Origin: Spizellomyces punctatus DAOM BR117
Taxonomy: Eukaryota
DNA length: 64,000 nucleotides
Direction: 5' to 3' (one strand)
Assembly: GCA_000182565.2 (NCBI GenBank)
Contig: KQ257456.1
The notes under the pieces are model-generated. The model was not told where the DNA came from. It saw only the letters and a program-made list of their open reading frames with translations, and ran no database searches. Shown in pieces: positions 15,645-58,023 of the stretch. Within the stretch, counting starts at the first letter, position 1. Every line of letters starts with the position of its first letter. The position numbers and the translations under genes were made by a program.

Positions 15645-16691
15645 AGATCAAAGGTGAGTTCACCTAGAACAGCAGAGCTGCAGTTTACTACGAACAATGT
15701 AGGTCATAATGGACTATCACGAGAGCGAAGAGATTATAGATGGGAGGAGAGGAAAACTGGCGCACCGTGAGGGCGAGTTACTCTACTCTCCTCACGATAC
15801 ATCGCTTATTACCTTTCAAAAAAAATCTAGACAAATCTTAATGACCTGACATGAGCTACAATTTTTCTTGTATTCTGTTAGCGGTAGATTGAGCCTTGCA
15901 CACTTTCGATAGAATATTTGAAATGTCATTCTGAGACATCGTGCAGGGGAAATTGTGCGCAAATATCTGGAGAGTCTTGACATACTGTGCTGGGTACCAA
16001 CATTGGGAAGATCCAATTCGATCCTACACTGCCAATGCTGGTATGCCCCAAGCTTATATCTCGTTGAACTCCAATCATCTCTAATATTTTGTTTTATCTG
16101 GATGTCACATATGTCGTGATGCAAAGAAGTACTCTTCGCAAATTGCGCAGCATAGCGTTCTTTGTGGGAATCATTACGTAAGCAATTAGCAAAGAAATCT
16201 TCTATCACTACAACACGCCCATCTCGTGCGCAGTAAACACACGCGTGCCCTGGGGGTTATAAAATGGCCCCCTCCAGCCGATTCCCCCCTTCTCCATCTT
16301 GCCTTTGCTCGGTCTTCAGACCATCTCAACAGCATGACCAACGCGAGCTTACAAGCAGCTCTCATCCGTCTGAGAACCTGCCTTCTCAGCGGAATCGGCC
16401 AAGGCGTCACGACAGGTGCGCTAGGTTGGTACAGCGACAGCCTACATCTGCTACCGACATTCTCTGTTCCTTACCCTTTCGGTTCGGCAGTCTGTTCGGG
16501 TGACAAACAGAGCAGGCATATATGCCACAAAGCGTTTCCTCTCAGTGAATGAGGCCAAGATGTAAACGCAAGGTACTTACGCATCGCCTTTGGACATGCG
16601 CACTTACTCATCTATTGCGCTCGACAGGCTGTAAACGCGAAAAGGAAAGCAAGTGCTCCTATTACCGAAAAGAAATTCACTTCACTTTCTC

Positions 16692-16845
16692 TACAGATTC
16701 GGCCAAGAATGCAGGGAGGCAATCAGCCAGTCTGGCGCACGTACTTCAAGCCCTTTACGGATTCGGCCAAGACTGCAAGGCGGCGTTTAGCCAGCTTGTC
16801 CACGCACTTCCTAGTGCGTTCTCTACGGATTTGGTCAAGGAGGAA
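16692..16845 (+). repeat. About 64-bp degenerate tandem repeat x2.5 in a decayed ORF (LY(G/R)FGQ units)
   Basis: TAC(A/G)GATT(C/T)GG(C/T)CAAG recurs at about 16692, 16756 and 16824. Confidence 0.55.
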
Positions 16846-16945
16846 AGATGGTCTCACAATGACGTACACGTAATACTCTAACGTTTCTGGCTGACAGATA
16901 TTCTCACATCGCCATGTAAGCGGATGCAGTCAAGCGATTACGATT

Positions 16946-17215
16946 GTTGAGGTGAGGGACGATAGTGGCATCGGCTACCGTTCATGCGCTAGGACCGGGT
17001 CGTTCAAATGCTGCCGAGCCTCCCCCTCCATTGCTGGGGCGTGCGCGTGGGCTCGGCGGGCCGTTGAGGTGAGTGAAGATGGTGGCATCGGCTAAAATTC
17101 ATGCGCTAGGACCGTCCAATGCTGCCGAGCCTCCCGCTCCATTGCTGGGGCGTGCGCGTGGGCTCGGCAGATTGTTGAGGTGAGGGAAGATGATGGGGCG
17201 TGCGCGTGGGCTCAG
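16946..17215. repeat. About 110-bp tandem repeat x2.5
   Basis: GTTGAGGTGAG recurs at 16946, 17063 and 17174; GGGGCGTGCGCGTGGGCTC occurs three times. Confidence 0.85.
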
Positions 17216-17236
17216 CGGCCGATGCGCGGATATCAG

Positions 17237-17562
17237 GGTTAAGCGCCGATTCGGGACCGCCGACAAAAGGGTGCTTAAGCGTTGCTCGGCCCCATTGGCG
17301 AGGCTGCAGCGCTCTAAAGTCGAGTTGCCCGCCTCGGCGCATCTCGTAGGTAAGTGGCCCCCTCGGTCTCCCACGGCAAGCATTGCATATGCGCAGGCTC
17401 CTTGAAGCGTTGCTGAGTGCTTCATTGCTGAGGCATGCACGTATTCATGGTTAAGCGCCGATTCGGGGCCACCGACAAAAGAGTCTTTGAGCCTTGCTGG
17501 CCTTGCCCATTGACGAGGCTGCAGTGTTTCAAGGTTGAGTGGCCCGCTTCGGCATCCCGTAG
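17237..17562. repeat. Direct repeat, two ~112-bp copies about 211 bp apart
   Basis: GGTTAAGCGCCGATTCGGG..CCGACAAAAG..CCCATTG.CGAGGCTGCAG at about 17237 and 17449. Confidence 0.85.
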
Positions 17563-38432: not shown

Positions 38433-43162
<4,730 letters not shown>

Positions 43163-47639: not shown

Positions 47640-50415
47640 ATGCTCGGCTTGGAAAAGAGTACGTTAGATCGTAGCTCGCCTTTTGCGGCATTGACCAGTT
47701 TCGCAACGGCCGTCAGCAACAGTGACAAGAACGACAAACGACCACCAACTAGTATTATACAGGGCGGACGTAGAAGTTTTCGCCATATGGGGAAAGGTAG
47801 CGGAGGAGGCGGGCCTCCGGCTGCGACACCCTCGTCCATCCTAAAACGATTACGAAGACCAGGCTGTCTACGCGGCGTCATATGCATTGCCCTCATGTGC
47901 TTTGTAGCATACACAGTTCTTCTGAGTGGACCTACCGGACGAGGCTATCGGGATGTGATACGCGCCACAACGTCACCTTTGGCGAGACCCCCCGCAGTAC
48001 AGCACCAAAACGATGCAGAAGATCACTCATTATATCATGATGCCAAGGGAGGTCGCTTGGAGGAGCACCCAAAGGGGCAAGTCCCCATACAGGAGCGTCC
48101 AGACGAGCGCTCATCTTATCATAACGTCGAGGCAGGTCACTCAGAGGAGCCCCGACTCGTTCCAGGAAGGGGGAGCTCTCGTCTACCGGCTGCTAAACTA
48201 CCAGATCCCATAACGGGCTCCACCGACACATCCAACCCAGTTGTCCCACCTCCCGACTCTGATCCTTCACGGCGACCCATGTCCCGACCTGATGGTCTGC
48301 TGGCAGGCCTATTCCCAGGAAAGAATTCCAATGAAACAATTACATACTTGCTAGAGCAATATGATGCATTAAAGCGAAATCTTCAAGAGGAGATTGAAAA
48401 GGCTGTTAAAGCTGATCGCGAACGACGAAATAATGAGCAAAAGCAACTACTAGAAGCTGAACTTGCGCAACGCATTGGTGTTGAGCGACAGACAATAGAA
48501 AAAGAGTATGAAAAGAAGCTAGCGTCCGAACTGGAAAGAGTAAATGCAAATAAACAGCAAGCAGACAAAACAGTAAAGGCAGAATTGGATCGAATATTCA
48601 CGATTCAAGAGAGTTCGGATCCTTCTTCCCGGATTTTCAATCCGGATCTCGCTTTAAAAATGCACGGCACCAAAGAAGTGAGGCTTGCGGGTTTCAAATG
48701 GTGTACGACGCTGGAAGGAGCAGACTTTAATGCTTGGATTCATATCGGTTAGTGTTGTTGCAATCAAGATGTGTGGGTCTGTTTAAACCCGTTTAATTTA
48801 TGCTCACGATACTTTTAGCTCCACTTGGTGGCAACCTCATAACAGCGAATCCTTCAAGATCCTTGGCAGCGAGTATGATTGATGCACTTGCACGAAAAGT
48901 GTATGATAATGTCATGTCATGGGCAGAGCATGAATCCTTTGATCCGACCAATGTGCGTCGCTTTGCGTGCTACATGGCAGCTCATGGCAAAAATGAATAT
49001 GCGCTTGCCACCGATGGAATGTGGTTGCTGCATGTGAACGGGACAGCATATTTTCCGGAGCTGACGTTAGAGGGGCCTGGAAATTCCCCTGTTAGAGGAC
49101 AAAAGCAACTGGGTGGGCGACATAATCGACGAGCTGTCGAACCTACCGGAGAGCAGGACAATGCAGTTCTGCAAGGCGACCACAAAGATAAGAAGGACAG
49201 TAATGCCGATGACAAGGAAGGGTCCAACAATGCACCAACAAACACCTCATCCAGTGCACTAAAATTCATCAAAAATCGCTCGGACCCACCACCCAAACAA
49301 CGCCATTCTGCGCCAACTACGCCTCTTCCGAACCGACGTCGTTATAAGATTGCGTATCTGCTTCTCGTTCACGAACGCTTAGACGTCTTTTCCACGCTCT
49401 TTGATGCTCTCTACGATCAAGATGGCGTTTTCCTCATCCATGTCGATGCTAAGCGGTCCGATTTCCGTGCAGAGGTTCACAAGTGGTTGAGTTCGCACAA
49501 GGTTTATGCCGATAGTGACAATATATTCGTCATGGAGAATTCATTCAACATGAACTGGGGTGCAAGCAGTATCGTCTTTGGACAACTGCAGGGGTTTTTC
49601 ACCCTGATGGATCTGGCCGACTGGGATTATGTCATCAATTTGAGTGGATATGACTATCCTGTTAGGAGTTCGAAGGCTATTCATGCTATATTGGAGGTGA
49701 GCACTCGTCATGTGTCGGCAATGTACCAAAAGCAGCTCACCTACTGTTGCCGTGTTCCCAGCGAGATCCCGGTAAAGCGTACATTGAACACTGGTACGAC
49801 TCTGAAATCGAATGGCGCCTTGAGCGGCCTTTCTTCCTTACCCGATCTCGTACATCCGTCCGAACTCCTTCCACGGCGCCCGAACGCCGGTTCCCATTGG
49901 ATCACCGCTTCCGAGCAATCAAGCACCATCAATGGATGATTCTCCCACGAGCTTTTGTTCAATACCTCCGCAGCAGCCCAGATGCTCATGACCTTCTCGC
50001 TTGGTCAGAGCACAGCTGGATTCCAGACGAAAGCTACTTTGGGATGGTCGCTTTGGCGAAAAGCAGCACAGAAGGGGGTTGGAGTGATAAAGTCATCAAC
50101 GATTGCAAACGGTTTATATATTTCGAAAAGGGGGCAATGCATCCCATTTGGCTAAAGAACGGAGACGAAGGAAAATTGGAACCAGGCGGAAAAGTGGAAG
50201 TCAGTTTACCTCTCAACTCGACACAATTGGCTGATCCGAGCAAGCGACCTCGAGAATTCTTTTTTGTGAGAAAGATTAATTCGTTATGGGAAAAAGGTAT
50301 TCGTCAGTGGATGGACGATCGGAGAAGGGAGGTTGATGAGGCACTTAAAGAGGAGATTGAGGCGGTAGATAAAAGGTTTTGGGATGGGGAGGAATCAGAT
50401 TATAGTATTTACTAG
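47640..50415 (+). CDS. GT14 (core-2/I-branching / xylosyltransferase-like) type II membrane glycosyltransferase
   Basis: TM anchor; KIAYLLLVH, IHVDAK, WG.SSI, WDYVINLSGYDYP, QWMIL.R.F, PDESYF and FVRK motifs. Confidence 0.88.
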
Positions 50416-50856
50416 ACGCGAGACTGTCGGCGGATAATTATGTGTAGAGTATTTTATTTTTTATTACTTAGTACCCTGAATGACAATCGTTCATATCAAG
50501 CATGTCACTACTTTTAAACAGACGGACGTTCCACTTGACTCGGGACCTTCTCGGGCCCATCTGACATATTAAATTGGGCAAGAAAGACTGTCAGTCTGCA
50601 GATAGATGCAGCCACTGGATCGAATCAAATGCAAGATGCCTTGATCTAAGCAAATGAACTATGGTTCGATGCACAAAAGATGCTCCATCATGAGAAAACG
50701 GGTCCGATATGTGTGGCCAGTATGAAAAACGGGTCCAATACCTGCGATAATGAACAGATTGCAATTACTATCCCTTGCGGCCATCTGACAGCCATCTATG
50801 AGAGGAATATTCTGCAGTTGCCACATCTATGACACTCCATGACTCAATCTTTTTCC

Positions 50857-50864
50857 TATATAAA
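50857..50864 (+). promoter_or_regulatory. Putative TATA box of ghost 2 internal transcript
   Basis: TATATAAA plus pyrimidine tract, about 100 bp upstream of ATG 50956. Confidence 0.55.
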
Positions 50865-50955
50865 CCCCCCCTCGTCCCCTTCCCCCCATCTTGTTTCTTT
50901 ATCCCTCGACTCTTGAAGCATCTGCCCGACGCTCAAGCACTCTCTCAAGTCCATC

Positions 50956-51297
50956 ATGAGAGTACTGCTCTGGTGCCGAGGACCTCGCCCTCCCGATGAC
51001 TACAACCAACTGGAACCAGCAGCAACCACTCGGAACCAACAAAGCTGCTGTTATGCTACCACATTAGTTGAGCTTGGTTGGTATGTACTGATTGCATCAT
51101 TTTATTTCTTGTCATCGGGTGATCTTCTGACATGCATTTTTTGTAGTCTCCAAGCCTTGTCACTGAACATCCTCTGGCTTGTGACGCTGCCCAGTCGATT
51201 CGCTCCTGGATGCAAGAGTCTGGCTTCAATGCCATCAAGAGTTCCAGATCAAGGCCTAGTAGGGACCGCGTGTGGTGGTGGGCAGTTATCCGGTTAG
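50956..51297 (+). CDS. Spliced small ORF (91 aa) inside ghost 2, with WCRGPRPPD motif
   Basis: ATG at 50956; intron 51081-51146 (GTATGT..CTGAC..GTAG) at the same position as in ghost 1; same stop context. Confidence 0.45.
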   Translation: MRVLLWCRGPRPPDDYNQLEPAATTRNQQSCCYATTLVELGWYVLIASFYFLSSGDLLTCIFCSLQALSLNILWLVTLPSRFAPGCKSLASMPSRVPDQGLVGTACGGGQLSG

Positions 51298-51343
51298 AAC
51301 AACCGTTACGTATTGCGTGTATAATTGCCTAGTAGTAGCTTAG

Positions 51344-51432
51344 CTTTTCCGAACTGGTTGTCGCCGGTTTATTCCCTGGTGTGCGAGGCACTGACATTTG
51401 TTTTTGCCAATACACTATTAAATTCTCCGATA
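51344..51432 (+). ncRNA. Fanzor omega-RNA (74-nt scaffold 51344-51417 plus guide TTAAATTCTCCGATA)
   Basis: CTTTTCCGAACTGGTTGTCGCCGGTTTATTCCCTGGTGTG...TACACTA; both stems retained. Confidence 0.8.
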
Positions 51433-51907
51433 AGCTATAGGATTTCTATCCGCGGTAGTTGTCTCGTGCTCATGACTGGTGAACATTATGCTCAATTAAT
51501 TGGAAGAGACAACACAGCTCCGACAAGGATTCAGGGCCATTACTAGCTGGCTACTGATCGCAATCAAGATGCTGCAGTCATATATGCCCTGTAACTGATG
51601 GCAAATGCCCTCGCCAGGTATAATCAGCCTGCGGTTGTGGAGGATAGCAAAATGCAAGGAATCTTCGGAGATTTAGATCGAATCTCAGGTGCCCCTTGGG
51701 AATGTTTTGATGGGGCCCGGATATTTTCTTGTTTTGGGGATCCTTTTGACATCGTCAGGTTCTGAGTACTATCGCACCGAATGGATCGCTTTGTTCAATT
51801 TCGGAAGTTTTCTGCAGAATGTTGCTTTGTCAGTCCGGGGTTTTTACCTCAATAGAGCGGGTTTCTCCCATCCCGCGGGGTCGAATGGGGGATAGTTTGA
51901 TGTTTGA

Positions 51908-53150
<1,243 letters not shown>

Positions 53151-56703: not shown

Positions 56704-58023
56704 ATGATCTCCACTGTGAGTGACTATATTCTTGTCCCTCTGTTCCTTGTCGCGTGGCGATGGGGGACCTGGTTGCAGGTTGGTCAAGTCATTGCCTGGT
56801 GGGTGTTTAGTGGAGGTCAGGAGCGGACTGTGCAAGTTCAACAGTGGGTTATGGAAATGGTGGAAAGAATAAGAACGAGAGCAAGATTTCAGGGTATATC
56901 CGTGGGTGTGCAGACTGAAGCCGTGCAGAATGACAAGAAAGCGCCTGAGAAAGTTTCCGAGAATAAAGAGCGACCATTTTCCGTTTCTGGGGGGTCTGTT
57001 ATTGCACCTGCTTATCAATGCGAGAAAGGAGAGCAGGAGAAGAGGGTGGATGGGTCCAAAACGTATGCTGCCGGTGTACCTCCTATGTGGGATGTTGATT
57101 CATCATCGGATTCGAATTCGACTTTGGTGAATCCGGACGGGGATGTAGAGTGGAAGGAGGCGGTTGGGGTGCTTGCGGCTATGGCGGCGGCCGCTGCTGA
57201 TAAAGAAGATGAGAAGTCGCAATCTCTCCCATCGTCGGTGAAGAGTGAGCAAGTAGATGTGGAAGAAGATAAAGATGCCGAACTTTTAAGTTTTACGCAA
57301 AAGATTCGGCAAATGTACGGCCATGATCCGCTTCTCAAAACCTTTAGCGATGCCCACATTTCAAAATTCGTTGTTGGATCTGGTGCCTTTAGAACACGAG
57401 AGGAAGATGCTATAAAAGCCCTAGAATCTACACTTGAATGGCGGCGGAAGAATGACTATGATTCCCTCTTTACCGAAGACTTTTCGGACATTGAACGAAC
57501 CCGCAAACTCTATTTTCACCCTCACCCAACCAAAGATGGCCTGCCTATTTTGGTTTGGCGAGCGGCACGTCACGTCATGTGCAAGGACGAGCATGAATTG
57601 CAGCGAACAGTTCGATACCTGATTTCGGTGGTGGAAAAGGCCAAAAAGAGCGGAAAATTGGATACACGATTGACCCTGCTTATATCTCGTTTGGACATTC
57701 TCCCCCAAAACAAGGATCCAGCGCTACTCAAATTGCTCCTGTCAACATTCCAGACTCACTATCCTGATCATCTGGAGCGGTTGTACATATTTCCAAAGAC
57801 GGTCCTGCTGACTATTGGATGGAACGTTGCAAAAGTATTTTTGAGCTCTGACGTGCGTGGACGAGTGGAGATACTTGGTGGAGATTGGAGAGAAGTGGTC
57901 AGGAGGGAGGTTGGGGTGGATGGGCTGGGTGAGGAGGCTATGGAATCTAAATCGGGTAGTATTAAAGAAAAAGGCAAGGAAAAGGAATCTGAAGTAAAAA
58001 AGAGGTTTGGTGTCAAATGGTAA
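56704..58023 (+). CDS. CRAL-TRIO/Sec14-domain lipid-binding protein
   Basis: A..ALESTLEWR, KDGLPILV, FQTHYPDHLERLYI and W..AKVFLS motifs; 439-aa ORF. Confidence 0.85.
   Translation: MISTVSDYILVPLFLVAWRWGTWLQVGQVIAWWVFSGGQERTVQVQQWVMEMVERIRTRARFQGISVGVQTEAVQNDKKAPEKVSENKERPFSVSGGSVIAPAYQCEKGEQEKRVDGSKTYAAGVPPMWDVDSSSDSNSTLVNPDGDVEWKEAVGVLAAMAAAAADKEDEKSQSLPSSVKSEQVDVEEDKDAELLSFTQKIRQMYGHDPLLKTFSDAHISKFVVGSGAFRTREEDAIKALESTLEWRRKNDYDSLFTEDFSDIERTRKLYFHPHPTKDGLPILVWRAARHVMCKDEHELQRTVRYLISVVEKAKKSGKLDTRLTLLISRLDILPQNKDPALLKLLLSTFQTHYPDHLERLYIFPKTVLLTIGWNVAKVFLSSDVRGRVEILGGDWREVVRREVGVDGLGEEAMESKSGSIKEKGKEKESEVKKRFGVKW

Follow-up and report, generated by a model that had tools for sequence, protein, structure and literature searches.

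A ghost Spu-1 element of Spizellomyces punctatus with a putative minority inverted-repeat subtype and part of its predicted guide target at the left junction

The segment at 50565-51432 (plus strand) of a 64-kb window of Spizellomyces punctatus DNA, the whole stretch analyzed here, is a gene-less "ghost Spu-1" element that carries a Fanzor guide RNA. We call it ghost 2; a related element in the window, ghost 1, lies at 31035-31816 on the minus strand. Ghost 2 is likely to be a non-autonomous member of a minority subfamily, B, within the family's common 30-nt inverted-repeat (IR) family. Its left end begins with the target-adjacent motif (TAM) and the first bases of its own guide target, a junction that could be the scar of Fanzor cutting and repair.

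Anatomy and guide RNA of ghost 2

Saito 2023 described 134 ghost Spu-1 loci in S. punctatus (PMC10432273). They are preceded on the left by CA and bounded by 30-nt IRs distinct from the Fanzor-locus IRs; the body is conserved, and a scaffold of 75 nt covers the right IR. Four ghost RNAs were functional in cells, SpuFz1 cuts 16-21 nt past the TAM, and the guide extends 14-15 nt past the scaffold (PMC10432273). Ghost 2 has the same CA, 30-nt IRs, conserved body and, as predicted, flank-derived guide, with its scaffold over the right IR, and like the published ghosts it lacks a Fanzor ORF. The first-pass annotation had taken the segment for a Fanzor ghost, and this identity was borne out by the CATA motif, the spliced mini-gene and the 74-nt omega-RNA scaffold found at 50565-51432. 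No ORF of 150 aa or more lies within these bounds, where only a spliced micro-ORF is present. The left 75 nt of ghost 1 equal the published gst33 letter for letter (PMC13434818, Supplementary Data 1), which ties the window to the published ghost Spu-1 family. Rfam returned no family for ghost 2. The SPu-1 Fanzor1 element of Bao and Jurka 2013 (PMC3627910) resembles the ghost in its short TIRs, its TA duplication and its lack of a transposase, but it encodes a 633-aa Fanzor1, where ghost 2 has a spliced mini-gene and diverged IRs instead.

From left to right, ghost 2 begins with CATA (50565-50568), assigned as the SpuFz1 TAM from the motif and from the CA that precedes the left IR in PMC10432273; the TA of CATA is the usual TA duplication, or the first two IR bases. 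The left copy of a 9-bp direct repeat (50567-50575) occupies the place of IR positions 1-8, and a remnant of the subtype-B left IR, positions 8-30, lies at 50575-50597. Next come the subtype-B left interior (50598-50903), with a TATA-like box at 50857-50864, and the first exon of the mini-gene (50956-51080), whose micro-ORF starts MRVLLWCRGPRPPD and is partly common to ghost 1. A 66-nt GT..AG intron follows (51081-51146; ends GTATGT..TTGTAG). The conserved omega-RNA core at 51344-51382 comprises stem-loop 1, the linker and the 5' arm of the stem 2 base, and the divergent distal stem 2 (28 nt, 51383-51410) is mostly the inner part of the subtype-B right IR. The latter spans 30 nt (51388-51417) and ends in TACACTA. 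The right copy of the direct repeat is at 51416-51424, and a 15-nt guide from the host flank is predicted at 51418-51432 on the basis of Saito's 14-15-nt extension.

An earlier claim that the two ghosts share the same body stood only in part. It holds for 50971-51382 (83% over 425 columns) and for a 32-nt block at 50904-50935, but not for the left interior, where blastn found no match between ghost 2 and ghost 1. The left interior of ghost 2 is instead common to the published record NW_015971538.102 and to flank text near parts 88-89 of Saito Supplementary file 7. That flank text contains a miniature derivative matching window positions 50757-50846, in which the mini-gene and the omega-RNA core are deleted and the B left interior directly abuts a B-like right end. 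The left interior of ghost 1 holds three 23-nt tandem copies at 31510-31589 that are missing from ghost 2.

Splicing of the mini-gene was seen at the level of the family. Contigs from three of the four sequencing runs compared (X1, X10 and X19) skip the 66-nt intron, though not in a locus-specific manner. A contig from run X1 is identical to ghost 2 over 50971-51080 and stops at the exon edge, and contig depth is high over the shared body but not assignable to the ghost 2 copy. A SpuFz1 omega-RNA expressed from the locus would be 88-90 nt long. Run X1 is labelled "DNA?", yet it has intron-skipping joints and zero intron depth (50300-51700) and so behaves like an RNA library. From the TATA-like promoter, a spliced transcript would extend across the scaffold and on into the flank. 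By analogy with other ghosts, the 74-nt scaffold with about 15 nt of flank would then be loaded in trans onto a Fanzor1 encoded elsewhere, and the loaded guide would target CATA plus the guide sequence, which is the empty version of the ghost 2 site.

The scaffold compares with that of ghost 1 as first described. The two agree at 37 of 40 columns over 51344-51382, up to CCCTGGTGT; the next 28 nt (51383-51410) differ, and 51411-51417 are identical. By eye, the core of ghost 2 is also identical at 38 of 39 positions to the published "ghost1" scaffold (PMC13434818). Folding of the 74-nt scaffold predicted both stems, with pair probabilities of 0.82-1.0 in basal stem 2. The earlier statement that the stem base is retained was confirmed, and the scaffold positions that touch the protein are intact too: by alignment, ghost 2 has U5, C6, C7, U16-G20, the linker, U35, G37, A72 and A75. 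G22 is missing, as it is from the published "ghost1" scaffold, and C12 is changed to U with a wobble pair retained.

The divergent 28 nt had been proposed to mark a tolerant region of the scaffold. The proposal is right, as 51383-51410 falls inside C40-G70 of the SpuFz1 omega-RNA, but it is not new: this region makes no protein contact and was trimmed without loss of activity (PMC10432273). A later paper found a modest loss with more active variants. The distal segment folds into GGCA/UGCC plus a 3-bp hairpin, and 705 of 5000 shuffles fold as well; it is thus no more structured than shuffled sequence, and we make no claim of selection on the fold. A degenerate scaffold pattern gave no matches in viral contigs and none in metagenome contigs. 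Judging from other ghosts, the ghost 2 scaffold may load on Fanzor1 and guide cleavage. It adds one more natural variant to the record of how freely distal stem 2 changes, a small gain for SpuFz1 guide engineering.

Several entries in the published scaffold list appear to be of another kind. By our count by eye, about 68 of the 126 "ghost scaffolds" in PMC13434818 are reverse complements of A-type left ends and not omega-RNAs. Thus gst33 equals window positions 31742-31816, and the left-end identity of gst10 and gst104 was verified. The same is true of gst7, gst73 and gst98, three of the five scaffolds described there as distant and of low activity. A further group of 13 entries by eye (gst1/gst8/gst16) shows an altered stem-loop 1 together with a distinct IR variant. 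These entries probably represent a third right-end subtype, with a scaffold that is probably longer and was clipped to 75 nt in the published list. We also considered them as left ends and dropped that reading because the stem-loop-1-like motif is kept.

Inverted-repeat subtypes and mixed ends

The divergent segment had originally been read as evidence that the guide cassette carries ends of different TIR families. Our comparison did not support this reading. The right IRs of ghosts 1 and 2 are equal in length, identical at 19 of 30 positions without gaps and identical over the last 7 nt. Over positions 8-30 only, they agree at 12 of 23, a score that 1002 of 100000 shuffles attain. On sequence grounds, the ends of ghost 2 are best described as a diverged, rarer subtype (B) of the family's usual repeat (A), not as a separate TIR family. 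Ghost 1 has well-matched repeats of its own, its left and right 30-nt IRs agreeing at 27 of 30 positions.

The left end of ghost 2 is more degraded. The 21/29 mirror reported between its left and right ends is reproduced by eye with one gap, but the ungapped match over positions 8-30 is 16 of 23. Within 50520-50640, 33 of 20000 shuffles reach this score. One unrelated site in the window scores 17 of 23, so the left/right match counts only through its position. The score is low in part because a right-flank copy now stands in place of IR positions 3-8. At 11 diagnostic IR positions where the two right ends differ, the left remnant follows its own right end six times, that of ghost 1 once and neither four times. 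An intact B left end is present in NW_015971538.102; by eye, it agrees with the ghost 2 right end at 23 of 30 positions and with its own A-type right end at 19 of 30. Together, the six-to-one split and the closer match of the intact left end show, as far as alignment can, that B/B was a real ancestral pair. Contigs of runs X1 and X2 match the left end only from 50575, behind another flank, which indicates that further B copies exist.

We next consider how A and B ends are paired among published copies. The census consisted of string searches of Saito Supplementary file 7, not of the whole genome. A 21-nt B left-end motif, searched in both orientations and in all ten block registers, matched one record, NW_015971538.102, which joins its B left end to an A-type right end. 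B-like right ends were found in at least three records (four of eight and four of eleven places listed for two search terms). By the refutation test that the first-pass annotation itself had set, the ends are not matched pairs: all three listed records with a B-like right end carry the common A-type left end. Among the matches listed, each of the four annotated records with one B-type end therefore has an A-type partner. The three B-like right ends agree with ghost 2 over their final 22-26 nt and depart from it at scaffold nt 41-49, and thus are close relatives of its right end and not identical copies. One of them, near parts 77-78 of the file, is identical by eye to the last 26 nt of the ghost 2 right IR. 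Hybrids between A and B within a single IR occur in gst9, gst99, gst112 and a record near part 93, and in the un-annotated, internally deleted copy of the flank text a B-like right end follows the B interior. All combinations are thus observed: A-left/B-right, B-left/A-right, B/B and hybrids inside one IR. The idea of modular swapping holds insofar as the ghosts are mosaics of modules, but the mosaicism is within one family and not between TIR families.

In the model that the matched pairs were meant to support, unrelated TIR families have been swapped onto the guide cassette, each with its own Tc1/mariner transposase. We regard this as unlikely. The left remnant does side with its own right end at 6 of the 11 diagnostic positions, the left interior is unrelated to that of ghost 1, the deleted copy likewise joins B interior to a B-like right end, and capture of Fanzor1 by many transposon superfamilies is known; an ancestral B/B pair also leaves room for a separate B transposase. 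Against the model stand the equal length of the A and B repeats, with 19 of 30 positions alike without gaps and the terminal 7 nt in common, and the A-type partner end in all four annotated B-end records among the matches listed. Nor did a transposase come to light. Saito found none between the Spu-1 IRs (PMC10432273), and a Pfam scan of 28 of the 31 long ORFs in the window detected no transposase or Fanzor domain; the remaining three were a pair of overlapping alternative frames and an ORF containing a run of N. An autonomous Tc1/mariner element with ghost 2 ends was likewise not found among the 28 ORFs scanned.

A single family with diverging subtypes remains the reading that we prefer. In this family the right IR doubles as the 3' arm of stem 2, of which Fanzor contacts only the base, as the structure and the trimming of stem 2 by Saito show (PMC10432273). 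In insect Fanzor1 RNAs, the TIR and TSD likewise lie within the guide-adjacent stem (Yoon et al., 10.1101/2023.08.09.552727); the Fanzor literature compared also included Jiang et al. (10.1101/2023.06.13.544871). The outer IR bases would then be under two constraints while the inner bases drift freely, giving rise to subtypes, and subtypes with about 400 nt of common body could recombine or convert one another to produce mosaic ends. Mixed ends further suggest that whatever mobilizes or copies Spu-1 can act on ends whose inner IR sequences do not match, which helps to limit the candidates for the mobilizer.

Ghost 2 itself is set apart from the published copies in several respects. In the records of Saito Supplementary file 7 seen here, B-type ends occur singly, and ghost 2 alone so far has them on both sides of a complete body; it also has its own scaffold nt 41-49 and a left tip replaced by 7 nt of target. 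Its locus was not found in that file, and its exact scaffold is not, by eye, among gst1-126 of PMC13434818. The nearest entries there are gst23, which has the 3' part of the right IR in common with ghost 2 and does not figure among the scaffolds named as tested in the available text, and gst10, which reads as an intact B left end in reverse complement. The Saito end search used a blastn score above 20 over 17 nt (PMC10432273), a criterion that could miss a B/B copy. We found no description of IR subtypes with mixed ends, or of target duplications, at Spu-1 ghosts in the parts of the literature searched; Extended Data Fig. 3b of PMC10432273 aligns all ghosts and may display IR variants.

A copy of the guide target at the left junction

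Ghost 1 and the sister copy with the intact B left end have TA at both ends. Ghost 2 has 9 bp: TATTAAATT occurs at both 50567-50575, directly after CA, and 51416-51424, as a shared prefix. The duplication consists of the fixed TA plus the first 7 nt of ghost 2's own guide target, and the probability of the 7-nt match by chance is about 9e-5. At its left end, the filled site therefore shows the TAM with the first 7 nt of the guide target behind it. The intact B terminus of NW_015971538.102 shows that ghost 2 has lost IR positions 3-8 to the copied target, the final T being common to both. Over 50300-50613, a contig of run X2 agrees with the window at every letter, which confirms the left junction and rules out an assembly error there. 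On the right side, a contig of run X1 matches 51388-51700 without differences and covers the right copy of the repeat; it reaches 30 letters into the element, one letter short of our bridging criterion. With its damaged left tip, ghost 2 is probably no longer excisable, and its supply of guide RNA may persist nonetheless. We suppose that the left tip disappeared, and 7 nt of target stayed, either at insertion or when a break shortly downstream of the TAM was repaired. Inverted template switching between the IRs does not explain the direct repeat found, since its product would be a reverse complement.

DDE transposition in general is prone to one-ended or otherwise aberrant insertions, which leave irregular duplications. 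The junction could have arisen in this way, through a faulty cut-and-paste event in which the transposase joined the right end at TA and host repair fixed the left end a few bases away, leaving an extended duplication and a shortened tip with no involvement of Fanzor. We place this explanation somewhat short of an even chance. It predicts an identical junction at a single locus, but it offers no reason why the left end and not the right, which is intact, should be damaged, and one locus cannot show a bias.

The alternative is restorative homing driven by Fanzor, in which a cut empty allele is repaired from the filled allele. Because SpuFz1 cuts 16-21 nt past the TAM, such repair would leave a junction of this kind if it halted short on the left. 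Copying would proceed from the right side and stop 5-6 nt before the left tip, and rejoining at a 1-nt microhomology would keep 7 nt of target. The duplication begins exactly at the TAM, directly copies the guide seed and is shorter than the cut distance, and only the left tip is lost, all of which fits homing. The same pattern is known from the Fanzor1 elements CRe-1/2/3 of Chlamydomonas, which show 5' truncation together with 7-19-bp duplications right after TTTT, whereas these features are rare in their Fanzor-less sisters (PMC3627910). Craig 2023 tentatively ties the CRe duplications to Fanzor (PMC10288648). CRe-1/2/3 and ghost 2 have in common the 5' truncation and a target duplication after a fixed tetranucleotide; they differ in that the former have Helitron2 ends, TTTT and hundreds of cases, and the latter is a TIR element with CATA and one verified case. 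Homing of TnpB and IscB also resembles the proposed route, in that a flank-derived guide and the TAM rebuild the empty site as a target, but a 2026 review, in the part available, describes homing as demonstrated for TnpB and IscB only and nuclease activity alone for Fanzor1 (PMC13565253).

Other observations weigh against homing. Only one locus was examined, and the contigs of the four runs compared contain no empty allele; a statement on host ploidy was not found in the literature searched. The predicted duplication failed at gst104 (near part 42 of Saito Supplementary file 7), where a single nucleotide is common to the damaged left tip and the right flank, and two further records whose tips are altered lack a duplication as well. 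We therefore hold homing as the cause of this junction to be a tentative reading, decidedly below even. The broader proposal that ghosts are spread and restored through Fanzor-made breaks, with the left junction as a homing scar and the mixing of ends as repair from non-allelic ghosts, is possible but doubtful. If true, it would provide genomic evidence for a biological role of Fanzor1, and the 134-locus family would be a countable record of homing events. TAM-anchored, left-truncated target duplications offer a countable signature by which homing can be tested from genome sequence alone. Since the biological role of Fanzor is stated to be unknown, the junction matters more than the subtype.

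A separate observation concerns the damaged left tip of gst104, in which 7 nt equal the reverse complement of flank positions 14-20, by the reported cut sites. This match was found post hoc and may be due to chance.

A third explanation, that a Mutator-like transposase with 9-bp duplications moves B ends, accounts for the length of the duplication and is otherwise very improbable. The sister copy with the intact B left end has a TA-only duplication and CA before its left end. In addition, placing the ends within the 9-bp repeat would leave them with a 6-nt asymmetry, and the IR is 30 nt long, as opposed to the long, symmetric TIRs expected of such elements.

Neighbourhood and other repeats in the window

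Ghost 2 starts about 150 nt past the end of an ORF at 50415, the last ORF of what appears to be a single gene. This upstream gene has a core-2/I-branching domain (PF02485 in the ORF at 48800-49939). Downstream of ghost 2, a yippee-like zinc-finger ORF is found at 52070.

Elsewhere in the window, 32500-33101 (minus strand) is a fragment of eukaryotic large-subunit rRNA, beside a tRNA gene at 32378-32459. Short repeats around the rRNA fragment recur at 33365-33446, 41203-41258 and 57871-57933, and the rRNA-fragment/tRNA repeats look like a small dispersed repeat family. A cluster of GC-rich direct repeats, 28-82 nt in length, lies at 16679-17498.
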